DNA from: Chitinophagaceae bacterium
GTDB lineage: Bacteria; Bacteroidota; Bacteroidia; Chitinophagales; Chitinophagaceae
Direction of reading: 5' to 3'
DNA: 36,336 nucleotides
Assembly: GCA_947468255.1 (NCBI GenBank)
Contig: CANIMM010000001.1
Location: 1-36,336 of the forward strand
Made by a program: the position numbers and the translations under genes. This document shows, one piece after another, positions 1,695 through 27,340 of the stretch. Every line of letters starts with the position of its first letter. Position 1 is the stretch's first letter. The notes below the pieces were generated by a model. That model saw only the letters and a program-made list of their open reading frames with translations. It ran no database searches and had not been told where the DNA came from.

Positions 1695-1754
1695 AAGAGA
1701 GTACTAATTGATTTTACATAATTCGAAAATATTGTAAATAAAATAATTTTGATA

Positions 1755-1788
1755 TTACTTTAGTCATCAGATGTAATGATATTAGTCA
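1755..1788 (-). promoter_or_regulatory. Tandem TGA-N6-TCA box pair
   Basis: TTA-CTTTAG-TCA (1755) and TGA-TATTAG-TCA (1777); -7-like TATTTTCG on minus strand at 1724-1731, 23 bp gap. Confidence 0.7.
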
Positions 1789-1957
1789 AGGACAAAACGT
1801 TCATTTATTGAATGCTTACTATTGATTTATCTAACTAGTTTTGGATAAATTCGATATTTCCGAATTTTTAATAAAACTTTTCAACAAAAAAAAAGGTTTC
1901 ACTCATTTACAATAAGCTTGCATTTTATTGAAATAAAATTTAATATATGCTATATTA

Positions 1958-1990
1958 AAAATGCCCACCAATTTACAAAGGGGGCATTTT
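1958..1990. terminator. Intrinsic terminator after hsp20
   Basis: Inverted repeat AAAATGCCC / GGGCATTTT with A/T runs at both ends, just downstream of the hsp20 stop. Confidence 0.6.
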
Positions 1991-2011
1991 GCAAATTCAT
2001 TCAGCTACTAA

Positions 2012-2455
2012 TTACTTGACCGATATATGTTTGCTGATTGCTGTTTTTTTAGCTTCTTCTTTTTTGGGTAAGACAAGTTTTAACAGTCCGTCTTCATAGT
2101 GGGCCTCAATTTTTTCCTTGTTCACTTCATCAGGAAGAGTAAAGCTTCGTTCAAATGAAGAATAACTATACTCTCTTCGAGTATACTTTCCCTCCTTTTC
2201 CTCTTTTTTATCCTCTTTTTCACTACTAATGGTAAGCAAATTTCCATCGATATCAATATTGAAATCATCTTTCTTTAAACCTGGTGCAGCCAATGATACT
2301 TGGTAATCATCCTTTTGCTCTGTAATATTTACAGCGGGTATGCTCATTACCCTACTAGATAATCCACCATCAAACCATTCGTTCCAAGGTTTAAAAAAAT
2401 CGTCAAATACAGACGGTACACGTTCTGTTAATTTAGCTAATGCTGAAGTTGCCAT
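2012..2455 (-). CDS. Hsp20/alpha-crystallin small heat shock protein
   Basis: PAVNITE, LAAPGLKKDDF, RREYSYSSFERSFTLP, AHYEDGLLKLVLPK. Confidence 0.95.
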   Translation of the reverse strand: MATSALAKLTERVPSVFDDFFKPWNEWFDGGLSSRVMSIPAVNITEQKDDYQVSLAAPGLKKDDFNIDIDGNLLTISSEKEDKKEEKEGKYTRREYSYSSFERSFTLPDEVNKEKIEAHYEDGLLKLVLPKKEEAKKTAISKHISVK

Positions 2456-2529
2456 AAGTCCTCCTTTTTTATTGTGAATTGATAATTTGTTTGATTAACA
2501 AATGTATTTTTAATATAAAAAAAAACAAA

Positions 2530-2563
2530 AGACATTGGTCAGTAGTATAACTGAGATTGGTCA
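2530..2563 (-). promoter_or_regulatory. Tandem TGA-N6-TCA box pair (hsp20 promoter)
   Basis: AGA-CATTGG-TCA (2530) and TGA-GATTGG-TCA (2552); perfect -7 TACATTTG on minus strand at 2499-2506, 23 bp gap. Confidence 0.8.
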
Positions 2564-2753
2564 GTGTAAAAAATCAGTAAAGAAATACCTGCTTTTAAGC
2601 TAAATGAAAATTCTATAAAACTTATTTTCTTATCATTCTGATTTTGCTTTTAGGCTTAATTTTCAACTTCATTATTTTGTTGATGCTGATATAATAACCA
2701 ATACTAATAATGAATAAAAAATACAATTGACAACCAAATATGGATTATTCATT

Positions 2754-3155
2754 TTAATTTAATTGTAATATTGCCTTTTCTAATTTCATTCCTACTTCTT
2801 CGGCAATATCCTGTAGTTTTTTATTTTTAATGGATTGCATAGAAGCTGATGGATCTATGGCAGAAACTTCTATTATTCCGGATGCTTTCTCCTGAACAAT
2901 TACATTGCAAGGCAGCATAGTTCCAATTTTATCTTCCGCTAACAAAGCCTGGTAGGCAAATGGAGGGTTGCAGGCTCCCAAAATTGTATAATTATGAAAG
3001 TCAACTTGTAGTTTTTTTTGCAAGGTGGCTTTCATGTCAATTTCGGTTAAGATACCAAACCCTTCTTCTTTCAAACTCTCTTTTATCTTTTCTATTGCAT
3101 TTTCGAAACTGCAGTTGATTGTTTGGGTAAAATAGTATTTTTTTATATTGGGCAT
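2754..3155 (-). CDS. DUF302 domain protein
   Basis: GFGILTEID, ILGACNPPFA, IGTMLPCNVIV signature. Confidence 0.9.
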   Translation of the reverse strand: MPNIKKYYFTQTINCSFENAIEKIKESLKEEGFGILTEIDMKATLQKKLQVDFHNYTILGACNPPFAYQALLAEDKIGTMLPCNVIVQEKASGIIEVSAIDPSASMQSIKNKKLQDIAEEVGMKLEKAILQLN

Positions 3156-3185
3156 CCTGAATGATTTAAATTTTCTTATTGATGG

Positions 3186-3506
3186 CTATTTCTTTTTCAT
3201 TTCCATATTGCATTTTTTACATTTCCCTGCTTGATCGCTTTTCTCATTAGGGTGCATTGGGCATTGATACAATTTCATAACTTCCGATTTCATTATTTCT
3301 TTTTTTGATTGCACCAGATCCATATTGCATTTAGGACATTTCCCTGGGTTAACACTCACTACATCCGGATGCATCGAGCAACAAAATTTACTTCTTTCTG
3401 ACTTTACCCCACTACTTCCAGTTGATTTAGCACTTGAATCCTGACCATACCCTACACATGAAATAATTGTTAAAATCGCAATTAGTATAATTTTATTTGT
3501 TTTCAT
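3186..3506 (-). CDS. Exported heavy-metal-binding domain (HMBD) protein
   Basis: Signal peptide plus two C-x-MHP...GKC-x-KC-x-M repeats. Confidence 0.85.
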   Translation of the reverse strand: MKTNKIILIAILTIISCVGYGQDSSAKSTGSSGVKSERSKFCCSMHPDVVSVNPGKCPKCNMDLVQSKKEIMKSEVMKLYQCPMHPNEKSDQAGKCKKCNMEMKKK

Positions 3507-3657: not shown

Positions 3658-3714
3658 TGACAAACTGCATGAATTTTAATGATATTAATCAGATATTACT
3701 TCTGATTCAATTCA
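3658..3714. promoter_or_regulatory. Triple TGA-N6-TCA box array
   Basis: TGA-CAAACT-GCA (3658), TGA-TATTAA-TCA (3680), TGA-TTCAAT-TCA (3703); spacings 22 and 23; no clear -7 at the usual distance. Confidence 0.6.
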
Positions 3715-3744: not shown

Positions 3745-3778
3745 TGACCAATATCAGTTTATTAATTTAGAAAGGTCT
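3745..3778 (+). promoter_or_regulatory. Tandem box pair upstream of the P-type ATPase
   Basis: TGA-CCAATA-TCA (3745) and degenerate TTA-GAAAGG-TCT (3767); weak -7-like TATTTTAA at 3802-3809. Confidence 0.55.
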
Positions 3779-4019
3779 TTCACTTGCATCGTTATTTGTT
3801 TTATTTTAACCTATAATATGATGGAGCTGTATTGTAAACATCAACTGCCTTCCATTTTACAAATACTTTGCTTTATTATTTTTATTAAAAAAAATATACT
3901 CATTAAAAATTATCCATTAGAATCACTATTGATCATTCGCTACTTTCTGAAAAATTTTATCCGTCTAAATTAAAATTAAAATTAAGTAATTTGATTTACT
4001 CTTTATTTAAAAATTTTAC

Positions 4020-6590
4020 ATGAACTGGCACAAGTTAAGTATTCAAGAAGTATTTGAAATACTAGGTACCAATCAGCAGGGTATACATTCGGCAATGGCT
4101 GAAGAGAAGTTAATTGAATATGGTCGCAATGAATTAGATACTGGGAAAAAGAAAAATATTGCTATTCAATTTTTAGAACAGTTTAAAGACCTGATGATTA
4201 TTATTTTATTGTTTGCAGCATTGATCTCAGGTTTCATTGGTGACGTTGTTGATACCATTGTTATTGTAATAATTGTTTTGCTGAATGCTATTGTAGGTTT
4301 TTTTCAGCAATATCGAGCTGAAAAAGCAATGCAGGCATTGAAGCGAATGACCGTTCCACAATCAAGGGTGATGCGTAATGGGGTGCTTAGCTTTTTGCCG
4401 GCTAACGAATTGGTTGTAGGAGATATTGTTTTGCTTGAATCCGGAAATGCTGTTCCAGCTGATATCCGCCTTATTGAATCAATCAATTTAAAAATAGAGG
4501 AAGCGGCACTTACTGGTGAATCCCTTGCGGTTGATAAAATTACTCAACCGCTCACTATAGGTGACCTGTCATTAGGTGATAAAATCAATATGGCCTTTAA
4601 AGGTACTTTTGTAACCCATGGTAGAGGTACTGGCGTGATAATAGCTGTAGGAATGCAAACCGAATTAGGTCGAATTGCCAAAATGTTGCAGGAAAATGAG
4701 TTACTCACACCCCTTCAACAAAGGATGGTTGTTTTTAGTAAAAGGTTATCTTTTCTTGTTTTATTTCTATGTATTTTGTTTTTTACTGTAGGCTGGTATC
4801 GAGGAGAGGAACTTTCGAAAATGGTATTAACTAGTATCTCGCTCGCAGTTGCAGCCATTCCAGAAGCATTACCAGCCGTTATTACCATTTCATTGGCCCT
4901 AGCTGCAAGGAAAATGATTCAATTCAATTGCCTTATCAGAAAATTGCCTGCTGTAGAAACCTTAGGTTCAGTAAACTATATCTGCACTGACAAAACAGGT
5001 ACGCTTACCAAAAATAGTATGCAGGTGGAACAAGTGTATCTAAATGGACAATTGTTTGATAAAAATAATTTTACGCAGATGGCGCAACAAAATAGTGCAG
5101 ATTTGTTGCTACAAGCCATTTATTTAAACAATAACATTATTGAGGATAAGGATAAAAACTATATTGGAGACAGTACAGAGAAAGCGCTAAAAGAATTGGT
5201 GAGAGACAACAAAATGAAGGTAGTAGAATTGCCTCGAGTAGCAGAAATTGCTTTTGATGCTGATCGAAAACTGATGACTACTTTTCACCCCTATAACAAT
5301 CAATTCGTTTCATTTACTAAGGGTGCACCTGATTTGTTACTCAAAAAATGTTTATTGGTTGATCAACCTACTATTTTGCATCATATAGATGAAATGGCCT
5401 TGAGAGGTTATCGGGTATTAGGATTTGCTTGCCGTTTTTGGGATACACTGCCAACAAAGTTAGATGCAAATTTGCATGAATCAGGGCTTAATTTTTTAGG
5501 GTTAACCTCAATGATTGATCCTCCTAGAGAAGAAGTAATTGATGCCGTAGCAGAATGTAAATCAGCTTCCATTATTCCGGTAATGATAACAGGAGATTAT
5601 CCAATTACAGCAAAAACAATTGCTTCAAGAATCGGAATTATCAATAGCGAAAAGGACCTAGTAATGACAGGACAGCAGCTATCAATTGTAGAGGAAGATC
5701 ATTTACTATCTATAATCGAATCTATTAAGGTGTACGCAAGAGTTTCTCCCGAACAAAAATTGTATATTATTAAAATGCTTCAAAAAAAAGGTCATTATGT
5801 TGCTATGACCGGGGATGGTGTCAATGATGCTCCTTCTTTAAAAAGAGCCAATATAGGAATTGCAATGGGTATTACTGGTACAGATGTATCAAAGGAAGCC
5901 GCTCATATGATTTTGCTGGATGACAATTTTGCTACCATCATAAAAGCTGTAAAAGAAGGGCGAAGAATTTATGACAATATCCTAAAGTTTATTAAATACC
6001 TAATGACAACCAACTCTGGTGAACTGTGGACCTTACTGATAGGTCCATTAATCGGTCTGCCAGTCGCATTATTGCCGATTCACATATTATGGATTAATTT
6101 GGTATCTGATGGATTACCTGCGATTGCGTTGTCATTCGAAAAGGAAGAAAAGGGAATTATGAATAGGCCCCCTCGACCTTCCCGTCAAACTGTATTTGCA
6201 AACGGAAGGGGAATACATATAATTTGGGTGGGCATGTTAATGGCAGGCATAGCATTATTTATACAGACATGGGCTATTGAAAAAGGGTTTCATTGGCAAA
6301 CTATGGTATTTAATGTTATTTGCCTTAGTCAGATGGGGCATGTACTGGCAATTCGATCAGATAATCAATCAGCATTTTCAAAAAATTCATTTTCTAATCC
6401 TTTCTTATTAAGTGCAGTTATATTAACTATTTTGCTTCAGTTTATTGTTACCTACAGCTCAATTTTTCATCCTATATTCCATACAGAAAATTTATCAATA
6501 ACGGAATTAATTACAGTTATTGTAGCATCTTCAATTGTTTTTTTAGGAGTAGAAATTGAAAAAAGGATTTTAAAAAAAAAATTGAAATAG
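4020..6590 (+). CDS. Cation-translocating P-type ATPase, type IIA (Ca2+-like)
   Basis: LTGES, IPEALP, DKTGTLT phosphorylation site, MITGD, TGDGVNDAP, LWINLVSDG. Confidence 0.95.
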   Translation: MNWHKLSIQEVFEILGTNQQGIHSAMAEEKLIEYGRNELDTGKKKNIAIQFLEQFKDLMIIILLFAALISGFIGDVVDTIVIVIIVLLNAIVGFFQQYRAEKAMQALKRMTVPQSRVMRNGVLSFLPANELVVGDIVLLESGNAVPADIRLIESINLKIEEAALTGESLAVDKITQPLTIGDLSLGDKINMAFKGTFVTHGRGTGVIIAVGMQTELGRIAKMLQENELLTPLQQRMVVFSKRLSFLVLFLCILFFTVGWYRGEELSKMVLTSISLAVAAIPEALPAVITISLALAARKMIQFNCLIRKLPAVETLGSVNYICTDKTGTLTKNSMQVEQVYLNGQLFDKNNFTQMAQQNSADLLLQAIYLNNNIIEDKDKNYIGDSTEKALKELVRDNKMKVVELPRVAEIAFDADRKLMTTFHPYNNQFVSFTKGAPDLLLKKCLLVDQPTILHHIDEMALRGYRVLGFACRFWDTLPTKLDANLHESGLNFLGLTSMIDPPREEVIDAVAECKSASIIPVMITGDYPITAKTIASRIGIINSEKDLVMTGQQLSIVEEDHLLSIIESIKVYARVSPEQKLYIIKMLQKKGHYVAMTGDGVNDAPSLKRANIGIAMGITGTDVSKEAAHMILLDDNFATIIKAVKEGRRIYDNILKFIKYLMTTNSGELWTLLIGPLIGLPVALLPIHILWINLVSDGLPAIALSFEKEEKGIMNRPPRPSRQTVFANGRGIHIIWVGMLMAGIALFIQTWAIEKGFHWQTMVFNVICLSQMGHVLAIRSDNQSAFSKNSFSNPFLLSAVILTILLQFIVTYSSIFHPIFHTENLSITELITVIVASSIVFLGVEIEKRILKKKLK

Positions 6591-6652: not shown

Positions 6653-8302
6653 TTAATCGCTATAGAGTTGTTCATAATACTCAGTAGCCATCCTATTACT
6701 GTCAAATTCAGGTAAAATGTCTTTTAATCCATTTTTTACAATTTCTAGCCATCTATTTGGGAAATCATAATACATGGGTAAGACTTCATTTTCTAGTAAT
6801 TGATATAAACTTGCAGCATCCATATCATCCTGTATATGTTCAGGAAGATTAATGTCGCAAGGGGGAATAATAAAGGAATTAATTTTATCCCTGGCAAATT
6901 CCGGAAACCATCCATCAGGCAGTCCTACATTGACAGCGCTATTCATTGCAGCTGCCATTCCACTGGTTCCAGAAGCTTCGTGGGTCATACGCGGCACATT
7001 CAGCCACACATCTGCACCTTGCTTTAATAATTTGGAAAGCTTTATTTCATATCCAATAAGGATAGAGCAGTTAGTATAGGTTTTGCAAATATTTACAATT
7101 TTATCAAATACACCAATAGCAGGATAATCCATGGGGTAAGGCTTTCCAGCCCAAATAATTTGAACAGGTCTTTCTATATTAGTTACTAAACGGTGAAATC
7201 TTTCCATATCATGGAAAAACAAATCCGGTCTTTTATATCCAGAAAACCGCTTGGCAAAAACAATGGTACATACTTTAACATCATATATTTCTCCACATTG
7301 ATCTGCCACCACTTCAAAAAGATATTGTTTTCCAAGTTGTTTCTTTTTAAGTAATGCTTCATCATTATTAGTAGACAAAGCATGGTACATAGTATCGTCA
7401 TGCCAGTAATTATAATTTTGAGCATTTGTTATTGAAATTACTTTGCAAATACTTTCGTTTTCCGACCAAATTTTGCAAAGGGTTTGTTGATGCAATTTTG
7501 AAACCCCATTTGCTTTTTTTGATAAAAGAAGTGCTGTTAAAGTATGATTTAGTTCGTCGTTGGATGATTGAGTAATTGCTTTTACTTCAGTCATTGGAAT
7601 ATCACAAAAGAATCCCATTTTCTCAAGCAAACTTAAGCTTGTTTTCTGGTTGCCCGCTTCTTCTGGGGTATGATTGGTAAAGACTAACTTTTTTTTAACG
7701 GCATCTGCATTTTTATATTTATTGTATAAATAAAATGCCAGTGGCAAAGCGTGTGATTCATTTAAGTGATAAATGTCAGGCTCCCACTTAATAGCCTCCA
7801 GTAATTTAACTCCACCTTCACCAAGTAATATGGCAGATGCGATTCTTGTTTCTGGATTTGCATCATACAACTTATCAGAAATTGTTTTGGCTAGATAATC
7901 ATTTTCCGGCAAATCGGTAGTAAGCAAAAAAAGGGGTGCAGTATTGAAAATTTCAGGAGGTAAATAAAAAGCTGTAACCCAAACGTCATGCCTTGAAACT
8001 TTAATGGTGAATTTTAAATTGGTAGGCACTAGAAATCCGTAATTTTTTTCTTCAAACAATACGTCCATGGTTTGATCTTGTTTCCGAACTTGGTCGTAAT
8101 ATCCATACTTCCATAATATACCTATTCCAATGAAATTTTGCCTTAATTCAAATGCACTTCTTAAATGGGATCCTGCTAAAAAACCTAGACCACCAGCATA
8201 GATTTTTAAGGGCTGGCTTATCCCATATTCCATACAAAAATAGGCTACCCTTTTTTGAAAGGAAGGATTAATTGAATAAGGTGGGGTGAATGTAAATTCC
8301 AT
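6653..8302 (-). CDS. glgP: Short alpha-glucan phosphorylase-like protein (GT35), PLP lysine substituted
   Basis: VAYFCMEYG, YAGGLGFLAG, HLNESH, FTNHTP, KRFSGYKR, EASGTSGM(A)AAMN. Confidence 0.85.
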   Translation of the reverse strand: MEFTFTPPYSINPSFQKRVAYFCMEYGISQPLKIYAGGLGFLAGSHLRSAFELRQNFIGIGILWKYGYYDQVRKQDQTMDVLFEEKNYGFLVPTNLKFTIKVSRHDVWVTAFYLPPEIFNTAPLFLLTTDLPENDYLAKTISDKLYDANPETRIASAILLGEGGVKLLEAIKWEPDIYHLNESHALPLAFYLYNKYKNADAVKKKLVFTNHTPEEAGNQKTSLSLLEKMGFFCDIPMTEVKAITQSSNDELNHTLTALLLSKKANGVSKLHQQTLCKIWSENESICKVISITNAQNYNYWHDDTMYHALSTNNDEALLKKKQLGKQYLFEVVADQCGEIYDVKVCTIVFAKRFSGYKRPDLFFHDMERFHRLVTNIERPVQIIWAGKPYPMDYPAIGVFDKIVNICKTYTNCSILIGYEIKLSKLLKQGADVWLNVPRMTHEASGTSGMAAAMNSAVNVGLPDGWFPEFARDKINSFIIPPCDINLPEHIQDDMDAASLYQLLENEVLPMYYDFPNRWLEIVKNGLKDILPEFDSNRMATEYYEQLYSD

Positions 8303-8760: not shown

Positions 8761-10743
8761 TTAAAAAATTGCATCCGCTGTAATTTTTTCTACTGTTGAT
8801 TCTATATTCAAATATTTTTCAGTCCGTTTACCTAATATACTTTCAAGGTCTTCCTTAAAAATCACCTCTTTTTTAAGAAGGAGTTCTGCTACAGATTTCA
8901 AAGAAGTTTTATTTTGTTGTAATAATTTTATTGTGCGTTGGTAGGCTTCGCTAACCAATTTTCTTACTTCATCATCTATCAATTTGCCAGTTTCTTCACT
9001 ATATGGTTTTTGAATACCCATGTCCCGCTGTCCGGTAGAATCATAAAAACTGATATTTCCTATAATTTTATTGAAACCATAATACATTACCATCATATAT
9101 GCCTCTCTAGTAACTTTTTCTAAGTCATCGATTGCCCCTGAAGAGACTTCGCCGAAGATGATTTCTTCAGCTGCCCTTCCACCAAGTGTGGCGCATATTT
9201 GCTCTGTAAACATTGATTCGCTGCGTAATTGTTTTTCTTCTGGTAAGTACCAGGCTGATCCCAATGATTTTCCACGAGGTATGATGGAAACTTTAATGAG
9301 TGGGTCTACCCTTTTTAGCAACCAACTTACCACTGCATGGCCCGCTTCATGATAAGCTATTATTTTTTTTTCTTCAGGTGAAATGATTTTACTTTTCTTT
9401 TCTAGTCCAGCTACAGTTCTGTCGATAGCATCTAAAAAATCCTGTTTATCAACGAATTTCTTTTTTTTTCTTGCTGCTATGAGTGCCGATTCGTTGCAAA
9501 TATTTGCGATGTCTGCCCCGGAAAATCCAGGAGTTTGAGAAGCTAGGAAATCGGTATCTAAACTACCATCTAAAACAAGGGGACGAATATGCACTTTAAA
9601 AATTGCTTCCCGCTCTTTCATATTGGGAAGTTCAAGATAGATATGTCTGTCAAATCTTCCAGGGCGAAGTAAAGCTGGGTCTAACATATCTGCACGATTG
9701 GTCGCTGCCAATACAATCACTCCACTATTCGTTCCAAATCCATCCATTTCTGTTAGTAATTGATTGAGGGTACTTTCCCTTTCATCATTGGCCCCACTAA
9801 GAAATGCTCCTTTTCCCCTAGACCTTCCAATGGCGTCTATTTCATCAATAAAAATGATACAGGGGGCTTTTTCTTTTGCTTTATTAAATAAATCCCTGAC
9901 CCGCGAAGCCCCTACACCTACAAACATTTCTACAAATTCAGAACCGGAGATAGAAAAAAAAGGTACTTGGGCTTCACCGGCAACTGCTTTCGCTAGCAGT
10001 GTCTTACCAGTACCGGGTGGCCCCACTAGGATGACACCTTTTGGGATTTTAGCACCCAGCTTTGTAAATGTTTCCGGATTTTTTAAAAAATCAACAATTT
10101 CCCTTACCTCCATTTCGGCTTCTTCTAAGCCTGCAACATCTTCAAAATTGATTTCAGTTTTCTGTTTTTCAACTAATGTAGCGGTTGATTTTCCAAAATT
10201 GAAAATATTTGATCCGCCAGAACCCATTCCCATGCCCCCAGATTTTTTTATTAAAAAATTCCAAAGTATGAGTAGAAAAAAAAGAGGCAATAGCCAACTA
10301 ACTATGTTCCAAAAAAAATTTGTTCTTTTTACATAGCTAAGTTCAGTTTTATCTTTGATAGCCAATTCATCTTCGGCTTGACTGAGCTTTCTTTCAAATG
10401 ATTCAACTGAGCCGATGGTAATGAAATAGTGAGGACCTAAATTGACACCATTTCCTATAGCTGGTTTGAAAACATCTTTGAAGTAAGGTGTTTTTTCAAA
10501 CTCTTTTTTTATATAAATCTCCGCCTTTTCATTATTTACGATTACAATTTTTTCAACTGCTTTTTTATTTAATATTTCATTTTTAAATTTTTGCCAGCTA
10601 ATTTCTTTATCCGAAAATGAATTGTTCAGCAAAGAAGGCAAAAAAAGCATGCACATTATTACTATATAAACCCACCAAAAACTGAATCTCCTACCAGATG
10701 GATTGATTTTTTTGTCGTCATTTTTGTTGATTGTATCAGCCAT
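8761..10743 (-). CDS. ftsH: ATP-dependent zinc metalloprotease FtsH
   Basis: Two TM segments, [19 protein letters not shown] (ATNR...LLRPGRFDR), HEAGH zinc motif. Confidence 0.97.
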
Positions 10744-10778
10744 ATATTAAAGTTTAAAAACAATATTATTTAGTTGAA

Positions 10779-10812
10779 TGACCAGTATCAGTTATAAGGA
10801 TGATTTTTTACA
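10779..10812. promoter_or_regulatory. Tandem box pair between divergent ftsH and htrA
   Basis: TGA-CCAGTA-TCA (10779) and TGA-TTTTTT-ACA (10801); perfect -7 TACATTTG on plus strand at 10836-10843, 23 bp gap. Confidence 0.8.
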
Positions 10813-10844
10813 TTGTAATCAACAATAGGCTTAAATACATTTGT

Positions 10845-13390: not shown

Positions 13391-13694
13391 CATACAGAAT
13401 AAATTAAAACGGCTCATTGGCAGCAGAAATATATATTGCAAATTCTATGCAAGGGCCTTCAAAAATGTACTATTGGGATTTACAATCACCCAAGTTTTTT
13501 GAAAAAAGGTAGAACTGATAAAAATTATTTAAAAATTGAAAATGTTGTTATAATGAATATTCAATTAAAAGAAATTGACTAATCATGTTATCAATAAAAA
13601 GGGGAAATTAAAATCTCTAGATCTAAAAGAATAATATTGCAGTTATAGTTAAGTAGAAAAATTGCACTTATTACTTTAACTTACAAACTAAAAT

Positions 13695-13728
13695 AAAAAA
13701 ACAAGGCAGATCTATTAAACCTGCCTTG
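13695..13728 (-). terminator. Intrinsic terminator of the candidate sRNA
   Basis: CAAGGCAG / CTGCCTTG stem (13702-13709 / 13721-13728) with a 7-U tract on the minus strand. Confidence 0.75.
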
Positions 13729-13907
13729 AAACCAACTGATAACAGTTTATAGTCTTTTACAACTTTTATTCTGAACCAGTCTATTCAATTCGGAAATCGT
13801 CCTTGTTTAGTTAGCAATTTCTATTCTGCCTTACGGTCAAACAGTTTACTGCCATTTAAACAGCTATCTCTGTCCTCCTTCTTCACCGACCTAACCCGAA
13901 TTGTATT
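13695..13907 (-). ncRNA. Candidate ~210-nt structured sRNA
   Basis: Own tandem-box promoter, long interrupted hairpin 13786-13903, intrinsic terminator, only a 14-codon ORF noticed. Confidence 0.6.
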
Positions 13908-13943: not shown

Positions 13944-13977
13944 TGATGGACATCAGGGAAACAAATGTTAGTAATCA
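13944..13977 (-). promoter_or_regulatory. Tandem box pair with no adjacent protein gene start
   Basis: TGA-TGGACA-TCA (13944) and TGT-TAGTAA-TCA (13966); -7-like TATCTTTA on minus strand at 13912-13919, 24 bp gap. Confidence 0.7.
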
Positions 13978-15273: not shown

Positions 15274-15307
15274 TGATTGACTTCAATTAATCGTATGATA
15301 TCAGTCA
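15274..15307 (-). promoter_or_regulatory. Tandem box pair (baeRF3 promoter)
   Basis: TGA-TTGACT-TCA (15274) and TGA-TATCAG-TCA (15296); TATTTTTA on minus strand at 15243-15250, 23 bp gap. Confidence 0.8.
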
Positions 15308-15559: not shown

Positions 15560-15593
15560 TGACTAAGGTCACTTAATACACTAATAGTCGTCA
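15560..15593 (+). promoter_or_regulatory. Tandem box pair (nitroreductase operon promoter)
   Basis: TGA-CTAAGG-TCA (15560) and TAA-TAGTCG-TCA (15582); perfect -7 TAAATTTG at 15617-15624, 23 bp gap. Confidence 0.8.
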
Positions 15594-17609: not shown

Positions 17610-17643
17610 TCAATGGGGTCATATTTATTGATGATGATTATCA
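17610..17643 (+). promoter_or_regulatory. Tandem box pair (hpf-SDR promoter)
   Basis: TCA-ATGGGG-TCA (17610) and TGA-TGATTA-TCA (17632); TAAATTTA at 17667-17674, 23 bp gap. Confidence 0.75.
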
Positions 17644-18065: not shown

Positions 18066-18827
18066 ATGAGTAAAATATTTGAAGGAAAGGTAGCGCTAGT
18101 AACAGGAGGAAGTTTTGGTATCGGGCGCTCTACGGCTGTTGCTTTTGCAAAACTAGGCGCTTCGGTTGTGGTGGCAGATTATATAAAGGATGAGAATAAT
18201 GAAACTATTCAAATTCTAAATTCGCTGAATGCCAAGTCACTATTTATTCAATGTGATGTATCCAACGCATCTCAAGTTATCAGTATGGTTGAGCAACTCA
18301 TTCAACGTTTTGGCAGATTGGATTTCGCATTTAATAATGCCGGAATTGAAGGTGTTACCGGTAAAACTCATGAATGCACAGAGGAAAATTGGGATAAAAC
18401 AATTAACGTCAATCTTAAAGGTATATGGATTTGCATGAAAAATGAAATACCTCATATGCTTAATCAAAAAAAAGGCGTTATTATCAATTGCTCTTCTGTA
18501 GCGGGCTTGGGTGGCTATGCTGGTTTACCATCTTACGCAGCCTCTAAGCATGGTGTAGTCGGTTTGACTAAATCTGCTGCTCTTGAATATGCTGGTCAGG
18601 GCATTCGAGTCAATGCAATTTGCCCCGGCGTCATTCATACGCCAATGATTGATCGGATTACTGGAAAAGATAAGACAGTTGAAAATCAATATGCAGCAAT
18701 GGAGCCAATTGGAAGAATGGGTGACCCTGAAGAAGTAGCCGAGGCCGTTGTATGGTTATGTTCTGATGCTGCCTCATTTATTACAGGAATAGCAATGCCA
18801 GTTGACGGTGGATATACCGCAGGATAA
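18066..18827 (+). CDS. Short-chain dehydrogenase/reductase
   Basis: TGGSFGIG, NNAG, YAASK, VDGG. Confidence 0.95.
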   Translation: MSKIFEGKVALVTGGSFGIGRSTAVAFAKLGASVVVADYIKDENNETIQILNSLNAKSLFIQCDVSNASQVISMVEQLIQRFGRLDFAFNNAGIEGVTGKTHECTEENWDKTINVNLKGIWICMKNEIPHMLNQKKGVIINCSSVAGLGGYAGLPSYAASKHGVVGLTKSAALEYAGQGIRVNAICPGVIHTPMIDRITGKDKTVENQYAAMEPIGRMGDPEEVAEAVVWLCSDAASFITGIAMPVDGGYTAG

Positions 18828-18917: not shown

Positions 18918-19592
18918 CTATTCTTCAAAAGCAAACTCTGGAGCTTCAATTTCCAATTTACTTTCAACACTTGTTATACCAGGGGCATTCCATACAGCAG
19001 TTTCTGCATCTTCCTTTTCTGCCATTGATCTAACCTTTCCTCTAAGGGTAACTCTTCCGCCCAATACTTCAGCTCTGATTTTTGCAGCATCAATAGTGGC
19101 ACTCCTATGGAAAGCAGAGTTGATCTTAAGCTGAATATCCGAGGTGGTGATTTTTGGCTTTACAATGATTGCATTTATGACTGATCGAACACCAGTTAAA
19201 TTTTCAATGGCAACTTTTGCATTGTTTCTTTGGTACTCCCATTCTACTTCTCCCTCAAGTCGCACGTTGCCGTTTTCAACTTTCACTTTAATTTTTTCTT
19301 CTTGAACAGCAGTATGCCATCTTAGAGCATTCAAAATTGCTTCAGCTATTTCTGTGTCGGATTTCTTATAGGCAGGAGAAACGCCAATTTGAATTTCTTC
19401 TGCAATTGCTTTTACACCAGCAATCTTTTTAGCTGCATTTTCAGCTGTAAGTTTCTTTGAATACGAATCAACTTGCCCCGAAAGGGTAACTATCCCGTTT
19501 TTTACTGACACACCGATTTCTGATGCATTTAAAAAAGGTTCCCATTTCAACTGATCCATCACATCTTTTTGAATTTGAATATCACTTTTCAT
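18918..19592 (-). CDS. Triple BON-domain (OsmY-like) protein without signal peptide
   Basis: Three repeats of D-x2-I...V-x2-G-x-V-x-L-x-G-x-V...A...G-[VI]-x2-V. Confidence 0.92.
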   Translation of the reverse strand: MKSDIQIQKDVMDQLKWEPFLNASEIGVSVKNGIVTLSGQVDSYSKKLTAENAAKKIAGVKAIAEEIQIGVSPAYKKSDTEIAEAILNALRWHTAVQEEKIKVKVENGNVRLEGEVEWEYQRNNAKVAIENLTGVRSVINAIIVKPKITTSDIQLKINSAFHRSATIDAAKIRAEVLGGRVTLRGKVRSMAEKEDAETAVWNAPGITSVESKLEIEAPEFAFEE

Positions 19593-19675
19593 TTTTTACA
19601 ATTTAATTGTTACTTAATTTAATTTTCACTATTTAATTATAACTTAAAGTAACATATTATTTTATAAGTCTTCAA

Positions 19676-19709
19676 TGAGTCAAATCAATAATGTTATTGA
19701 TTCTAATCA
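19676..19709 (-). promoter_or_regulatory. Tandem box pair (BON promoter)
   Basis: TGA-GTCAAA-TCA (19676) and TGA-TTCTAA-TCA (19698); TTACTTTA on minus strand at 19645-19652. Confidence 0.8.
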
Positions 19710-19814: not shown

Positions 19815-20447
19815 TCATTTTACTATTTCCATATCATTTATTTTATCTAACAATTCATTCACTTCTTCGTCACTTACTTGTTCAAAATCTTCATAAAACT
19901 CCCCTACTCCATGAAATATCTCCGGAATCAGTAATGCTACAATTTCATCTACCTCTTTGGAGAGTTTATAAAAAGCTATTTTAGAAGCTACCGGCACAGC
20001 AATCACCATTTTTTTAGGGTTGCTTTTTTTTAAAAGATTTACAGTGCCCATTAGCGTATTACCTGTCGCTACCCCATCATCTACAATGATGATAGTTTTA
20101 CCCTCTAACTGTATAGGCGATTTCCCTTTCATAAATTTTCGACTCATTTCATTGAGTCGACTTCTAATACTCACTAATTCTTCTTCTATGTATTGCGTTG
20201 TGACATTTTCGTGAGGAACTATAAAATAATCATACAAACTCGCTGCTCCTATTGCATACTCCTTATTGCCGGGATGGCCAATTTTTTTGGTGAGCACCAA
20301 TTCTAAAGGCATATTAAATTCTTTTGCCAGTTCAAAAGCAACTGGCACACCTCCACGTGGAATAGCCAATATAACTCCTGGTTCATTTTTATATTTTTTC
20401 AATTTAACTGCCAGTTGCCTTCCCGCATCTAATCTGTCTCTAAACAT
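19815..20447 (-). CDS. Phosphoribosyltransferase family protein
   Basis: FRDRLDAGRQLA, AIPRGGVPVA, PRPP motif IIVDDGVATGNT, FYEDFEQVSDEEV. Confidence 0.93.
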   Translation of the reverse strand: MFRDRLDAGRQLAVKLKKYKNEPGVILAIPRGGVPVAFELAKEFNMPLELVLTKKIGHPGNKEYAIGAASLYDYFIVPHENVTTQYIEEELVSIRSRLNEMSRKFMKGKSPIQLEGKTIIIVDDGVATGNTLMGTVNLLKKSNPKKMVIAVPVASKIAFYKLSKEVDEIVALLIPEIFHGVGEFYEDFEQVSDEEVNELLDKINDMEIVK

Positions 20448-20643: not shown

Positions 20644-21291
20644 TCAAACTTCAACCGATGTTAAATGGTTTTCAAACCAGTTTGCTGCCAATGCTGAAAC
20701 AATTTCCATTTTTCCTGACTCTTCAAAAAGATGGGTAGCACCTTCAACAACTGTTAATTTTTTTTCACATTTTAGTTGCGCAAATGCATCTTTATTTAAT
20801 TGTATCACTTCTGGATCTAAGCTTCCAACAATTAATAATGTAGGTGATTTTACTTTGGACAAGTCCTCTCTTGCAAGGTCTGGTCTACCCCCACGAGAAA
20901 CTACAGCTCCAATTTCATGCATATTGGCTGCAGCCTTTAAAGCGGATGCAGCACCGGTACTAGCGCCAAAATATCCGATTACACAATCTTTTGCTTTTGG
21001 CAAAACTTCCAACCATCTCGTTGCAGTTACCAACCTATCGGTAAGTAGATTGATATCAAATCTATTGCGGTAATAAATATCCTCAGCTTCGGTCAATAAG
21101 TCAAATAAAAGGGTGCCGATATTTTTCAAATGAAGGTACTTTGCAACCTGTTTATTTCGCATACTAAACCTGCTGCTTCCGCTGCCATGTGAAAATATTA
21201 CAATTGATTTTGCACCTGCTGGAATTACTAGTTCACCTCGAAGACTAATTTTTCCGGCTGGAATACTTACTTCTTTTTGATAATCATCCAT
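20644..21291 (-). CDS. Dienelactone-hydrolase-like alpha/beta hydrolase
   Basis: HGSGSSRFS, FGASTGAA nucleophile elbow, VSRGGRPDLA, GATHLFEE. Confidence 0.92.
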   Translation of the reverse strand: MDDYQKEVSIPAGKISLRGELVIPAGAKSIVIFSHGSGSSRFSMRNKQVAKYLHLKNIGTLLFDLLTEAEDIYYRNRFDINLLTDRLVTATRWLEVLPKAKDCVIGYFGASTGAASALKAAANMHEIGAVVSRGGRPDLAREDLSKVKSPTLLIVGSLDPEVIQLNKDAFAQLKCEKKLTVVEGATHLFEESGKMEIVSALAANWFENHLTSVEV

Positions 21292-21300: not shown

Positions 21301-21828
21301 CTATTCGTGAAGGCTAATAGGTGCCTTTGCTTTAATATTAATTTCAAACTCGGCTAATTGTGATAATCGATCATTGATTTGCTTTTCACTAACTTCCGCT
21401 TCGTGAAATAACGACGCTTGTTTTTCTTTGTTTAACGCCAACGCAAATGCTGCTGCAGTTCCATAAGTGCTTATTTTAAAATGGTTAATTGTTTGGATAC
21501 AAGATAATAGACAAGCGTCTCTAATTTCTGCATCCGTACAATTTGATAATTTCTCATCGACCTCTTTTATAAAAGCCTCCATTACATGGTTAGTGAGCGC
21601 CATTGAATTGATTTTTTCCTCCTTAAATATCTCTTCCAATTTTTGTAAATGATCTAGTATATAATCATAATACTTCTGCAGCACCGTTTTAAGTTTTAAT
21701 GACCCTGCATTACTGATCCAATTTGGCAATCGATTTTTTAATTGAATTTCCGAACTAGTGAATTTTCGAGTATCGAAATTTAATAAATTATTCAAATTGG
21801 TTATTGACTCATTGTTATTTGTTTCCAT
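21301..21828 (-). CDS. DUF892/YciF ferritin-like protein (degenerate metal ligands)
   Basis: SSEIQLKNRLP, LEEIF, IRDACLLSCIQTINHFKISTYGTAAAFA aligns by eye to YciF RDAALI-x-AAQKVEHYEIA-x-YGT. Confidence 0.75.
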   Translation of the reverse strand: METNNNESITNLNNLLNFDTRKFTSSEIQLKNRLPNWISNAGSLKLKTVLQKYYDYILDHLQKLEEIFKEEKINSMALTNHVMEAFIKEVDEKLSNCTDAEIRDACLLSCIQTINHFKISTYGTAAAFALALNKEKQASLFHEAEVSEKQINDRLSQLAEFEINIKAKAPISLHE

Positions 21829-21879
21829 GTGTTTATATTTTTATTGTATAAATTTAACTAACTAGTGGTGCTTTTAAAA

Positions 21880-21913
21880 TGAGCTTCATCATCGAATATC
21901 CTGACATTTCTCA
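21880..21913 (-). promoter_or_regulatory. Tandem box pair (DUF892-DLH-PRT promoter)
   Basis: TGA-GCTTCA-TCA (21880) and TGA-CATTTC-TCA (21902); TAAATTTA on minus strand at 21849-21856, 23 bp gap. Confidence 0.8.
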
Positions 21914-21940: not shown

Positions 21941-21974
21941 TGATAACAATCATTTAATAGGTTGATTAGAAGCA
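21941..21974 (+). promoter_or_regulatory. Tandem box pair (Ere-like gene promoter)
   Basis: TGA-TAACAA-TCA (21941) and TGA-TTAGAA-GCA (21963); TTGGTTTG at 21998-22005, 23 bp gap. Confidence 0.7.
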
Positions 21975-22098
21975 TTATTTGTATGACCGAAATTTCGTTG
22001 GTTTGAAATGTACAATCGTTTGTTGAATCATTATTTTCTTTGTAATAATTTATAATGGTTGTTTTTATATTATTTAATCTCTCCGTTAAATTTTATTT

Positions 22099-23436
22099 AT
22101 GCGACATTATTTTACTAAAGAAGCTTTATTGGATGAACCGGAAGTAGTTAGTGCCATTAAACAATGGGGCTATCCGCTTCAAAGCAAGGCAGACCTTCAG
22201 ACCCTTTTTGATAAAATTGCAGATGCTCGTATTGTAATGCTGGGAGAAGCAAGTCATGGTACACATGAATATTACACTTGGAGGAGCCATATTTCTAAAA
22301 GATTAATTGAAGAAAAGGGATTTAATTTCATTGCTGTTGAAGGAGATTGGCCAGACTGTTATCGATTGAACCGATATATAAAGGGGCTCGATAAGGATCC
22401 CAAAAGCGCTTTTAATGTACTACACGCTTTTAACCGCTGGCCTACCTGGATGTGGGCAAATTGGGAAATAGTTGCATTGTCGGATTGGATCCAAACGCAT
22501 AACAATTTACTTCCTTCCAATAAGAAAGTTGGATTTTACGGATTGGATGTATATAGTCTTTGGGAAAGCCTGGACAACATCCGTCAATATTTAAAAAAGA
22601 CCGATCCTGCTGCGCTAATTGTTGCAGAAGAAGCTTTTCGTTGTTTTGAACCCTATCGAAAGGAAGAAGGCAGTTCTTACGCTCGTGCATCACAATTTGT
22701 TCCCGAATTGTGTCAAACTGAGGTGGTTCATCTACTGAATGCCATTCAGCAAAAATTACCTACTTATAACTCAGACCATGAAAATGTTTTCAGTGCTGAA
22801 CAAAATGCTTTGATTGCCGTAAATGCAGAAAGATACTACCGTGAAATGATAAAAGGGGGACCGCATAGTTGGAATATTCGGGATCGTCACATGTCCGATA
22901 CCCTTGATAGATTACTGACTTTGCACGGCAATGAATCAAAAGTGATTGTGTGGGCACATAATTCGCATATCGGTGATGCAAGGGCGACAGATATGGCAGA
23001 ACAAGGGATGTGTAATTTGGGAGAACTTGCTCGAATGAAACATTCAGATAAAGGAGTATTTCTTGTAGGCTTCGGATCTTATAAAGGGAGCGTAATTGCT
23101 GGAAAAAATTGGGGTGCCACCATGCAGAATATTTCGTTGCCAGAGGCAATAAAAGGAAGCTGGGAATATTTATTACACAAAGCTAGCAGCGCAAACAAAC
23201 TTTTACTGATGGAAGATTTTGCAAATAATGACACGATGATGGAAAATCACATAGGGCATCGTGCTATTGGAGTGGTGTATCAATCACAATTTGAGCAATA
23301 TGGCAATTATGTTCCTACTATTTTACCTATGAGATATGATGCATTTATTTATTTTGATGAAACCAGGGCTTTATATCCCTTACACAATACAGTAGATGGA
23401 ACTCAAATACCCGAAACTTATCCTTTTGGAATTTGA
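22099..23436 (+). CDS. Erythromycin esterase-like family hydrolase
   Basis: LGEASHGTHEYY, AVEGDWPD, FYGLDVYS, WNIRDRHM, WAHNSHIGDARAT, ETYPFG. Confidence 0.93.
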   Translation: MRHYFTKEALLDEPEVVSAIKQWGYPLQSKADLQTLFDKIADARIVMLGEASHGTHEYYTWRSHISKRLIEEKGFNFIAVEGDWPDCYRLNRYIKGLDKDPKSAFNVLHAFNRWPTWMWANWEIVALSDWIQTHNNLLPSNKKVGFYGLDVYSLWESLDNIRQYLKKTDPAALIVAEEAFRCFEPYRKEEGSSYARASQFVPELCQTEVVHLLNAIQQKLPTYNSDHENVFSAEQNALIAVNAERYYREMIKGGPHSWNIRDRHMSDTLDRLLTLHGNESKVIVWAHNSHIGDARATDMAEQGMCNLGELARMKHSDKGVFLVGFGSYKGSVIAGKNWGATMQNISLPEAIKGSWEYLLHKASSANKLLLMEDFANNDTMMENHIGHRAIGVVYQSQFEQYGNYVPTILPMRYDAFIYFDETRALYPLHNTVDGTQIPETYPFGI

Positions 23437-24673: not shown

Positions 24674-24792
24674 TTTTTTCAGCTCCCCTACACTGATTTC
24701 TTGTAAACGAAGTAAACGAAGCTGTTTATTCATTATACTATTAAATATTCGGCCCACAGTTTCATAGTCTATTTTTTATAAATAAAAACATC

Positions 24793-25977
24793 ATGAAAAA
24801 AATTTACCTTTTTTTGATAATGGCTATTAGCATCTATCCTGCAGCTGCATTTCGTATTGAATATGGAAAAGATATTGTCATTTCCCAACCTGTGTATGAA
24901 AATTTGTATATAATGGGTGGTAAAGTAACCATTAATGCTCCCATTCATGGGGATTTGATAATTGCCGGTGGCACCATTGTTATTAATGACAGTGTTACCA
25001 ATGATATCAACATTGCAGGCGGTGAAATAACCTTTAACGGGTGGGTGGGTGGAGATATTCGCTGTGCAGGGGGCAAAATCTTTATTCGAAAAAATGTGTT
25101 GGGTGAAGTGGTGATAACCGGGGGGGATATAATGGTAGATAAGGGAATAGAAATTGGCGGATTATTAGCAAGTGGAGGAAATATCACCATCAATGGAAAT
25201 GTGAATGGGAAAATACTAGGTGTATTTGGTGAATTTTCTTTAAATGGAAATGTGTTGAATGATGCGGATCTCAGAGGTGGTCATCTTTCCATCAATGGTT
25301 TGATTGGCGGAAATACTGTATTGGCAGCGAGAACAATTGTGTTGGGTGAATCTGCAACATTCAAGGGAAATATTCGCTATTGGAATAAAGAAGGCACCCT
25401 AGGTATAAAAAACAACTCAATCAAAGGAAAAGCGATTTTCGATCCTTCTTTACGTATTCGAACCGGGGAATGGTATTATCTCGGTGCTGTAACTATTTTT
25501 GGTTTTCTTTGGTACATTGGTATGGCTTTGCTAATGATTGTTGTTGTTCAGTATTTATTTTCCGCTACTATCAAAAAGTCTGCGGCTACTGCTTTTAGCA
25601 ACAGTTTGCAATCCCTAGGAGTTGGATTTTTATTTTTAATTTTAATTCCAATGGTTGCAGTAATTGCATTGTTTACCATCATTGGTGTTCCAATAGCCAT
25701 TTTCTTGTTTATAGGGTACGTCTCGCTCATCTTGCTTTCAACGGTCATCACTTCTGTGGTCGCGGCCAACTGGATCAATAATCAAAATAATTTTCATTGG
25801 AATATGACCCAACTTGTTTTGATATCGATTATTATTTTTGTTGTGTTGAAGCTCCTTACATTTATGCCCTTTTTTGGTTGGTTCGTGATGGCCTTACTAG
25901 TTTGCATATCATTTGGTGCAATTTTATTAAATATCAATTGGAAGGGAAAGCGCCCACAAATAGTTGCAGATAAGTAG
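24793..25977 (+). CDS. Membrane protein with N-terminal Gly-rich beta-helix (bactofilin/polymer-forming-like) repeats and C-terminal TM bundle
   Basis: Signal peptide, ~15-residue repeats (GD-x3-AGG-x-I-x-I), then about 5 TM segments. Confidence 0.8.
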   Translation: MKKIYLFLIMAISIYPAAAFRIEYGKDIVISQPVYENLYIMGGKVTINAPIHGDLIIAGGTIVINDSVTNDINIAGGEITFNGWVGGDIRCAGGKIFIRKNVLGEVVITGGDIMVDKGIEIGGLLASGGNITINGNVNGKILGVFGEFSLNGNVLNDADLRGGHLSINGLIGGNTVLAARTIVLGESATFKGNIRYWNKEGTLGIKNNSIKGKAIFDPSLRIRTGEWYYLGAVTIFGFLWYIGMALLMIVVVQYLFSATIKKSAATAFSNSLQSLGVGFLFLILIPMVAVIALFTIIGVPIAIFLFIGYVSLILLSTVITSVVAANWINNQNNFHWNMTQLVLISIIIFVVLKLLTFMPFFGWFVMALLVCISFGAILLNINWKGKRPQIVADK

Positions 25978-26010
25978 CAATAGGATACAATTTTTATAGA
26001 TTATAAAAAA

Positions 26011-26184
26011 ATGAGTAAGCTAGGATCGATAGAGAAAACCCGGACAATTGCAAGGACATACGGTTTCTTGATATTGCTGGTATTAATTTTATTAAGTCGT
26101 TACGGAAGAACACTATTGGAATGGATTTTTGCTAAGCTATATCAATTTTTTATTGAAAATGGAGTTCTGAATATAGGTGCGTAG
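26011..26184 (+). CDS. Small membrane protein (57 aa), not in the ORF track
   Basis: Hand translation MSKLGSIEKTRTIARTYGFLILLVLILLSRYGRTLLEWIFAKLYQFFIENGVLNIGA; A-rich upstream; fills the intergenic gap. Confidence 0.55.
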   Translation: MSKLGSIEKTRTIARTYGFLILLVLILLSRYGRTLLEWIFAKLYQFFIENGVLNIGA

Positions 26185-26192
26185 GCGATAAA

Positions 26193-27224
26193 TTATTTAC
26201 GTGCCAGCAATAGGTTGATTGGTTTCCATTGCTCAATATGATCACTGATAATTTTTAAAATTGCAACAAAGGGAATAAATAACACCATTCCAGCCATCCC
26301 CCAAATAATGCCTCCTACTATTACGGCAATTAACATAGCCAAAGTACTTACCTGTAATTGGGTACCTACTACTTTTGGAAATATCACATTGGCCTCGAGG
26401 TATTGAACAAAGCTAAAAATTGCAATTACTCCCAGTGGATACCAAATATTGCCAGTTTGTATCCATATTATAGAAATAGGTAAAAGGGCACTAACAAAAA
26501 TACCAATGTAAGGAATGATGGTCATCACTGCGCAGAGCATTCCAAAAAGAATGGCATTTTGAACACCCAATGCATATAGACCAATGCTGTTGAGAACCCC
26601 CACAATGAGATAAACCAACACCATTCCTTTGATAAAGTTATAATATGTGTGGATTGTTTGCTGTAAAATGGTGGCTAACTTAATTTGGCTTTCGAATGGC
26701 GTGATTAATTGCAGATATCTTACCAATACTTTTCTATGGTACAAAAATAGTGCTGAATACACCGGAATCAGAAAGGCAGTAAAGAGGGTGCTGATGGAAG
26801 TTTCAACTGTGGCCTGCAACATTGTTCCCAAACTTCCGGTAAAGTTACTATTCCATGTATTGTGAATATTGGTGGCAACCCCTAAATGGGTATTCATCCA
26901 TTGTTGTAGAAGCTGTACTGTTTTATCAATTTTACTAAGAATTTGAGGAACATCTGTAAGGAATATATTTATTTGCCAAATCAGCAGCCATAAAATTGAA
27001 GCAAACACAATTGTTACTATTAGAAGACAGGCGGAGATGGCAATTGGCTTTTTCCAGCCATGATTCTCCAGCCATTTGCAAACAGGATATAAGATGATAG
27101 CGATGAGTAACCCAAAAAACAAGGGTACAAAAAGAGTTTTTCCTGCGTATAGCAATAAAGCGGTAAAACCGATTGCTTGCAAGTATCGAATATAAGTGGA
27201 AAAAGGGCGGGTGGTAGACTCCAT
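26193..27224 (-). CDS. AI-2E family transporter
   Basis: IPYIG, QYLEANVIFPKVVG, GGIIWGMAGMVLFIP. Confidence 0.93.
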   Translation of the reverse strand: MESTTRPFSTYIRYLQAIGFTALLLYAGKTLFVPLFFGLLIAIILYPVCKWLENHGWKKPIAISACLLIVTIVFASILWLLIWQINIFLTDVPQILSKIDKTVQLLQQWMNTHLGVATNIHNTWNSNFTGSLGTMLQATVETSISTLFTAFLIPVYSALFLYHRKVLVRYLQLITPFESQIKLATILQQTIHTYYNFIKGMVLVYLIVGVLNSIGLYALGVQNAILFGMLCAVMTIIPYIGIFVSALLPISIIWIQTGNIWYPLGVIAIFSFVQYLEANVIFPKVVGTQLQVSTLAMLIAVIVGGIIWGMAGMVLFIPFVAILKIISDHIEQWKPINLLLARK

Positions 27225-27267
27225 AATTTTTACAAATAAAGTTGGTTGAATTAACTAGATAATATTA

Positions 27268-27301
27268 TATCTGTAATCAGTTTTCAATATGACAGAGGTC
27301 A
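27268..27301. promoter_or_regulatory. Tandem box pair between divergent AI-2E and Na/Pi genes
   Basis: TAT-CTGTAA-TCA (27268) and TGA-CAGAGG-TCA (27290); degenerate nnnnTTTA octamers 23 bp away on both sides. Confidence 0.6.
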
Positions 27302-27340
27302 GGTGCTCATTGAAAATAACAAGTAACCTTTAGATAAATT

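Follow-up and report, generated by a model that had tools for sequence, protein, structure and literature searches.

Paired TGA-N6-TCA boxes mark a predicted low-oxygen regulon of a Chitinophagaceae bacterium and recur across the Bacteroidia

Background

The window analysed here, 36,336 nucleotides of DNA from a Chitinophagaceae bacterium (GenBank assembly GCA_947468255.1, contig CANIMM010000001.1, positions 1 to 36,336 of the forward strand), contains 13 pairs of the dyad TGA-N6-TCA, which we propose to be binding sites of a regulator of the Crp/Fnr family. Boxes of this kind are known from class II promoters, such as those of CRP and FNR in Escherichia coli and of Anr in Pseudomonas, where a Crp/Fnr-type protein acts from a site centred at -41.5. 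In the FixL-FixJ-FixK pathway of alphaproteobacteria a PAS kinase with a haem-ligating histidine (FixL) acts through a separate receiver-LuxR regulator (FixJ), and the output passes through a Crp/Fnr protein to targets that include cbb3 oxidase. A distal arginine is part of the oxygen pocket of FixL.

Tandem sites are known from mycobacteria. DevR (DosR) binds cooperatively to tandem sites, one strong and one weak, which lie at -42.5 and -63.5; its Dev box has the half-site GGGACT, of which G5 and C7 are essential (PMC3177182). At the whiB1 promoter of Mycobacterium tuberculosis two CRP sites lie 21 bp apart, and the upstream site improves binding to the downstream one (PMC2844151). In Burkholderia cenocepacia TGA-N6-TCA occurs at 17 intergenic points of the lxa cluster, which is needed for anoxic survival (PMC3721108).

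Soil and water harbour large numbers of aerobic Bacteroidota, yet we found no description of their low-oxygen sensing. No paper on the tandem layout reported below, or on its regulator, was found in the open literature, subscription literature and regulon databases being outside the scope of the search. Neither is the layout described in the available parts of PMC3590769 and PMC8510549, the latter of which places near MalR those Crp/Fnr proteins of Flavobacteriales and Saprospiraceae that have no assignment. We consider it probable that the pairs belong to a low-oxygen regulon, in which the paired boxes bind two dimers of a receiver-Crp/Fnr fusion protein (encoded on contig C151 of the same assembly) that is phosphorylated by a FixL-like PAS kinase at low oxygen.

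Box pairs and promoter geometry

All 13 pairs reported in an earlier note, made from the letters of this DNA alone, were recovered where it had placed them, and every pair has at least one exact box. Eleven have at most one mismatch in total, those at 3745/3767 and 27268/27290 having two. These 11 pairs share a start-to-start distance of 22 bp; each other distance from 12 to 39 bp gave 0–2 pairs in the window. The note had named shuffled and coding DNA as controls, and the pairs passed both: 500 block shuffles gave a mean of 0.16 and a maximum of 3 pairs against the 11 observed, and the two extra pairs found in coding DNA (7767 and 12428, each with two mismatches) are at chance level. All 13 pairs are intergenic, in a window with an intergenic share of 16%. 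Resampling of the intergenic DNA (1000 order-2 Markov sequences) yielded a mean of 0.034 and a maximum of 1 pair with at most one mismatch (11 observed), and a mean of 0.55 and a maximum of 3 at two mismatches (13 observed). In the rest of the genome assembly containing the window (G000, estimated to be 76% complete), pairs of two exact boxes number 10 at 22 bp and 0–3 at other distances.

The note had further placed an octamer resembling the Bacteroidota -7 element 23 bp after most pairs. The seven octamers that it quoted are indeed found there, each facing a gene, but the claim needs correcting elsewhere: the octamer at 3658 is not convincing (3/6), that at 3745 is weak (4/6), that at 13944 lies at a gap of 24 bp, and the pairs at 10779 and 27268 score on both sides. 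An octamer scoring at least 5/6 at a gap of 23 bp accompanies 8 of the 11 best window pairs (0–1 at gaps of 18–22 and 24–28), 15 of 32 pairs elsewhere in the genome (at most 2 at any other gap from 18 to 28) and 85 of 130 pairs from relatives (at most 9). A promoter matrix built from 90 sites, all from relatives, matched 11 oriented promoters in the window, which belong to 10 of its 13 pairs, and a further 20 in the remainder of the genome; with ten altered spacings or gaps it matched 0–2 and 0–3, respectively. The -33 motif TTTG is nearly absent: of 90 tandem promoters, 9 have it with a start from -36 to -30, and there is no peak. Together with a centre at -41.5 from published start sites (see below), this supports the suggestion that the proximal box takes the class II position and replaces the -33 element.

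Distribution across the Bacteroidia

The pairs had been taken for an island-wide regulon. Those of the island are real, but they are not specific to it: the paired-box layout occurs genome-wide and class-wide. An exact pair was found in 36 of 41 near relatives. In a draw across the phylum, the exact pair alone occurred in 119 of 301 genomes, mostly with 1–3 matches outside the class; it is thus noisy, and the pattern including the -7 element was therefore used. The scan for this full architecture, which had been advised, covered 151 class-level genomes; with one mismatch allowed, 107 of them have it, whereas the reversed control turned up in 5. With so low a background, the sequence alone yields a candidate sensor, regulator, motif and promoter geometry, so low-oxygen regulons should be predictable throughout the class, including cbb3 oxidase and nosZ-linked genes, the latter being relevant to nitrous oxide removal.

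Further targets in the genome of the window include ccoS followed by a gene read as ccoN, a universal stress protein (Usp) gene, a second baeRF3 gene, and a gene for a 206-aa Dnr-like Crp protein, divergent from a cytochrome c gene and a gene that is presumably nosZ. Two near-identical loci with nosZ-like, cytochrome c and Dnr-like Crp genes are present (contigs C132 and C229); either a duplication or an assembly that mixes strains may account for them.

Three genomes (G567, G569 and G564) have 7–11 regulator-profile matches and 20–55 promoter matches each, which suggests regulon expansion with paralogues. G521 and G535 depart from this trend, with 8 profile matches and 4 and 9 promoter matches.

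Regulator and sensor kinase

As the earlier note had stated, the window itself contains no regulator of the proposed type; one lies about 1.2 kb beyond its left end. This end has an exact 44-nt overlap with the start of contig C151, inside a single L,D-transpeptidase frame, the window part of which (1–1266, reverse strand) is cut by the contig end. The note had advised looking for Crp/Fnr genes beside the island, and C151 carries one together with a kinase gene. After the transpeptidase part come a 14th box pair (C151:412, octamer at gap 23), a lipoprotein-like gene, a gene for a receiver-Crp/Fnr fusion with the domains REC-cNMP-HTH (C151:1276–2334) and a gene for a FixL-like PAS histidine kinase (C151:2479–4134). 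The nearest named records are Ferruginibacter assemblies (93% identity). In three relatives (G001, G013 and G017) the block of Hsp20, hypothetical and transpeptidase genes adjoins the regulator and the kinase, with pairs among them. A search for related loci with one protein reached close relatives only (13 of 16 matches full or near-full).

The TGA-N6-TCA core and the adjoining Crp/Fnr-family and sensor kinase genes support the Crp/Fnr reading of the boxes. Compared with CRP, the recognition helix of the C151 fusion keeps the Glu and the second Arg and has Thr in place of the first Arg; under the CRP and FNR recognition rules such a helix should read a bare TGA-N6-TCA core, in agreement with the boxes. 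The fusion is neither a CRP nor an FNR proper. It lacks the RE-R helix and scores 90 bits with the curated CRP family against a cut-off of 266, and it has a receiver, no N-terminal cysteine cluster and an FNR score of 68 bits against a cut-off of 228. No curated NCBIfam model fits it. Unfused relatives do have N-terminal cysteines, but their curated FNR score is 100–110.

The best solved relative of the first PAS domain of the kinase is the FixL haem PAS domain (E 1.6e-14), with the His aligned. Among 57 kinases neighbouring such regulators, all 34 in which the pattern was readable have this His. Five Crp-type HTH genes were found in the genome, and two of these are REC-cNMP-HTH fusions beside histidine kinases, one on C151 and one on contig C309.

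Start sites and the oxygen signal

In Flavobacterium psychrophilum the -7 element lies at -12 to -5 (PMC9723704). In the start-site table of that study, a box precedes the -7 element of ccoI by 23 nt, which puts it at -47 to -36 with its centre at -41.5; ccoI and a Crp/Fnr gene are divergently arranged (PMC9723704). A proximal centre at -41.5 places the distal centre at -63.5. Expression of ccoI rose by 4.94 log2 under oxygen limitation, and three further starts with a box 23 nt before the octamer rose by about 3.8, 6.3 and 1.9 log2, whereas a fifth, with the box overlapping the start, showed no rise on oxygen loss (PMC9723704). The box is not mentioned in the available part of that study.

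Use of two boxes

The two boxes of a pair are not alike. Pairs with an exact distal and an imperfect proximal box outnumber the reverse by 38 to 19 in relatives and by 15 to 5 in the genome of the window. The central A+T fraction is 0.74 in distal, 0.56 in proximal and 0.84 in single boxes, and the distal box is nearer to the single-box consensus than the proximal one. We infer that a strong distal site may help to fill a weak proximal site, whose dimer would contact the polymerase, the two dimers cooperating.

In island loci from the taxonomic order of the window's bacterium, which were partly chosen because they contain pairs, 45 of 59 promoters have tandem boxes. Unfused relatives of the regulator, most with N-terminal cysteines, have the same recognition helix as the fusion, and in five genomes (G027, G320, G078, G121 and G294) pairs stand beside unfused regulators and no fusion was found. 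The layout therefore appears independent of the receiver domain. Bridging of the two dimers by the receiver domain was considered and is rejected on the same grounds. In one family (f19), presumably the Flavobacteriaceae, a single box serves both directions at four loci. Two genomes (G061 and G090) have a single box by a cysteine-type regulator and tandem boxes by a fusion (2/2 and 1/5), so the host polymerase alone is doubtful as the cause of tandem use. In a quick tree, tandem boxes go with fused as well as cysteine-type clades, and both clades from f19 use single boxes. This natural contrast between single and tandem boxes, even within one genome, offers a direct test of the mechanism.

Comparison with known systems

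The locus resembles class II CRP/FNR promoters in its palindromic TGA-N6-TCA core, in a centre near -41.5 (by geometry carried over from the F. psychrophilum start sites) and in a Crp/Fnr-domain protein linked to the sites. It differs in that a second box abuts at -63.5 in most regulon promoters, which are sigma-A -7 promoters, in that the core lacks the CRP or FNR flanking bases, and in the receiver domain as input. With the FixL-FixJ-FixK pathway it shares a PAS kinase that by sequence has the haem-ligating His, a Crp/Fnr output and cbb3 oxidase targets. Here, however, the receiver and the Crp/Fnr module form one protein, the boxes are tandem, and the distal Arg is replaced by Met; the kinase has a REC-cNMP-HTH neighbour, and no LuxR gene is found on C151 or C309.

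The types of cargo are also similar to those of the DevR regulon, with Hsp20, nitroreductase, S30AE, P-type ATPase and Usp genes. Tandem strong and weak sites are shared too, in helical phase and at nearly equal positions (PMC3177182), whereas the DNA-binding fold and the motif are unrelated and the GGGACT half-site is absent. The resemblance is thus one of working, and likely due to convergence rather than membership. The lxa locus is a large co-regulated cluster in an aerobe as well, with Usp, alpha-crystallin and nitroreductase genes (PMC3721108), and the window likewise has clustered stress genes with a common intergenic TGA-N6-TCA motif. That likeness is one of motif and cargo types; in the available part of the lxa paper single motifs and no 22-bp pairs are described, and the phylum and the candidate regulators are others (PMC3721108). 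At whiB1 one promoter is repressed, whereas here the pairs are regulon-wide and activation is predicted. In sum, the system works like FixL-FixJ-FixK and the DosR regulon but is a member of neither, nor of CRP/FNR proper.

Proposed mechanism and alternatives

When oxygen falls, the FixL-like PAS kinase would phosphorylate the adjacent receiver-Crp/Fnr regulator, and two dimers of this regulator on the tandem boxes at -63.5 and -41.5 would switch on the stress-survival cluster. In genomes without a fusion, the same promoter design may be read by the unfused cysteine-bearing relative with the same recognition helix. The output in the window would comprise heat-shock, protease, ribosome-hibernation, envelope and storage functions; beyond the window it would extend to genes for the cbb3 oxidase, for universal stress protein and for nosZ-linked regulators. 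Direct binding, cooperativity, polymerase contact and the oxygen signal are, for this organism, predictions from the promoter and protein sequences. If true, regulon-wide activation by abutting Crp/Fnr dimers would deprive the C-terminal domain of polymerase alpha of its usual place. A broader reading is close to an even bet, and we put it forward tentatively: in most Bacteroidia the response to low oxygen may be controlled by a Crp/Fnr clade, so far undescribed, that can take either a phospho-receiver or a cysteine cluster as its input. Its abutting dimers, paired on the DNA at -63.5/-41.5, would activate in a geometry that is repressive in the single Crp case described, and would have converged on the DevR switch in layout and in dormancy-type cargo, including new small RNAs, and one family would have gone back to single boxes.

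The layout is present in 103 of the 123 genomes with a match to the regulator profile and in 4 of the 28 without (8 of these, unlisted, were deduced by subtraction). Several points weigh against the proposal. The co-occurrence just given is overstated, because the profile (A1) includes one Dnr-like row and so also catches Dnr-like proteins, the genomes are related, and the double-negative genomes are mostly small; moreover, 20 genomes have the regulator and no layout, and 4, G518 among them, the layout and no regulator match. The full-length regulator search scored 51 candidates per genome, and genes of G005 and G011 may be missed. Near native regulators of either form, all 54 promoters of family f19 have a single box at gap 23 without a distal box, so the regulator clade can activate from one box. 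The quick tree has weak deep support, with 26 of its 65 inner branches open. Abutting CRP dimers repress at whiB1 when both sites are filled (PMC2844151), which is the chief reason for caution and also what makes the layout most interesting. The F. psychrophilum search covered six 12-mers plus ccoI and its neighbour rather than all starts, and the start-site table shows 50 nt upstream and therefore tests the proximal box only. The Met of the C151 kinase at the FixL distal Arg position means that its ligand may not be oxygen. Finally, the core is also compatible with the helices of the fusion encoded on C309 and of the two Dnr-like Crp proteins of 206 aa; with these candidates, and with the genome incomplete, the binder is not fixed.

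With the same regulator and signal, the distal box might limit or tune expression, or bind a second Crp/Fnr paralogue. Single boxes suffice in f19, the two neighbouring CRP sites of whiB1, spaced by 21 bp, act in opposite ways (PMC2844151), and four candidate binders exist in the genome of the window. Against such a role, distal boxes match better than proximal ones, as with the primary and secondary sites of DevR, and genomes in which only a single relative of the fusion was found (G078, G121, G320, G074 and G294) still have the layout; we regard it as rather unlikely. It also appears unlikely that the promoters and proteins are as proposed while the kinase responds to nitric oxide, carbon monoxide or redox state. 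The boxes mark promoters induced by oxygen deprivation in F. psychrophilum, and ccoS-ccoN is a target here, although the Met in place of the distal Arg, the pair carried by the Dnr-like gene near nosZ and the general stress nature of much of the window cargo would all fit another signal.

That the binders are instead the 206-aa Dnr-like proteins beside nosZ on C132 and C229 is improbable: their helix also lacks the first CRP Arg and a pair lies upstream of each gene, but they are unlinked to the island, to which the fusion is linked in this genome and in three relatives, and a pair in their own promoter fits a downstream target. The earlier note had also offered a NarL/DosR-type regulator, to which a LytTR response regulator may be added. 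The tandem cooperative DevR sites at -42.5 and -63.5 (PMC3177182) and a cargo resembling that of the DosR regulon speak for such a reader. The alternative is not supported, however, and is highly improbable, since the Dev box needs G5 and C7 of GGGACT whereas T precedes GA here and C follows it in about 30%, and none of the five LuxR-type or two LytTR genes of the genome lies on the 25 contigs that have pairs with at most one mismatch. Scarcely credible is the idea that the pairs are a by-product, either of chance in A+T-rich DNA or of back-to-back single-box divergent promoters: 2 of the 13 pairs do score in both directions, but the counts exclude chance, the other 11 are not two-sided, and f19 uses one box both ways.

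Candidate non-coding RNAs

The pair at 13944..13977 (reverse strand; octamer TATCTTTA at 13912–13919, gap 24) faces a non-coding stretch. Behind it lies a candidate structured non-coding RNA of about 215 nt (13688..13907, reverse strand), which ends in a hairpin and a T run and has no long open reading frame. Its folding beats 200 of 200 shuffles (z -3.9, terminator included). Among 60 other genomes of the genus, 4 have it at 74–93% conservation and with box-like sites upstream of it, and 4 of 57 predicted base pairs show a compensatory change. A search of Rfam gave nothing credible in the window or on contig C100 (one sub-threshold match). This and the RNA of C100 described next are candidates for two RNA targets of the regulon.

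On C100 of the same genome (8890–9480, reverse strand) a 215-bp unit is present as three tandem copies, each made up of a box pair, a -7 element and a candidate RNA, about 65 nt long, that has a terminator. Of 81 genomes from the family, 53 carry such RNAs, frequently as multiple copies, and they have no Rfam match; a box pair accompanies 3 of 32 examined copies, only the three tandem ones. The 5' part of this RNA is complementary to an ATG-AAA-AA start region.

Promoters and genes of the window

Protein families of the genes faced by the pairs were named by Pfam. At the left, the pair at 1755..1788 (reverse strand; octamer TATTTTCG, 1724–1731) faces a hypothetical gene (1263–1694) and the L,D-transpeptidase gene running past the left end, and that at 2530..2563 (reverse; TACATTTG, 2499–2506) an Hsp20 gene (2012–2455). 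The pair at 3658..3691 (reverse), whose 3/6 octamer is at gap 23, faces a heavy-metal-binding gene (3186–3506) and a DUF302 gene (2754–3155); the neighbouring pair at 3745..3778 (forward), with both mismatches in the proximal box and its weak octamer at 3802–3809, faces a P-type ATPase gene (4020–6590). The two-way pair at 10779..10812 has a rightward octamer TACATTTG (10836–10843) towards a DegP-like gene (11068–12549) and a leftward octamer AAACTTTA (10748–10755) towards ftsH (8761–10743), followed by a hypothetical gene and a glucan phosphorylase gene (6653–8302).

Both boxes are exact at 15274..15307 (reverse; TATTTTTA, 15243–15250), facing a baeRF3 release-factor-like gene (14065–15195), at 19676..19709 (reverse; TTACTTTA, 19645–19652), facing a triple-BON gene (18918–19592), and at 21880..21913 (reverse; TAAATTTA, 21849–21856), facing a DUF892 gene (21301–21828), then a gene at 20644–21291 and a phosphoribosyltransferase gene (19815–20447). 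On the forward strand, the pair at 15560..15593 (TAAATTTG, 15617–15624) faces a nitroreductase gene (15675–16208) and three downstream genes to 17484, that at 17610..17643 (TAAATTTA, 17667–17674) an S30AE/HPF-like gene (17709–18041) and an SDR gene (18066–18827), and that at 21941..21974 (TTGGTTTG, 21998–22005) an erythromycin-esterase-family gene (22099–23436) and three downstream genes to 25977. The last pair, at 27268..27301, is weak and two-way, towards an AI-2E transporter gene (26193–27224; octamer 27237–27244) and a Na/Pi cotransporter gene (27341–29008; octamer 27325–27332).

By the predicted starts, the leader would be 0 nt for ftsH (10743) and about 4 nt for the Na/Pi cotransporter (27337–27341), so these are either leaderless messages or genes with later start codons. 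Small proteins without a family match are encoded at 1263–1694 and 16750–17148 and on C309 (2142–2525). The product of 1263–1694 resembles the C309 protein, whose gene adjoins that of the second fusion, and in relatives, too, homologues are encoded next to the regulator. A 149-codon open reading frame at 12941–13390 (forward strand), without a Pfam match, resembles a fragment of a longer gene. Past the last pair, 29132–35320 holds two PepSY-like membrane genes, two glycoside-hydrolase-like genes and a LacI regulator gene, apparently a separate sugar-use unit.

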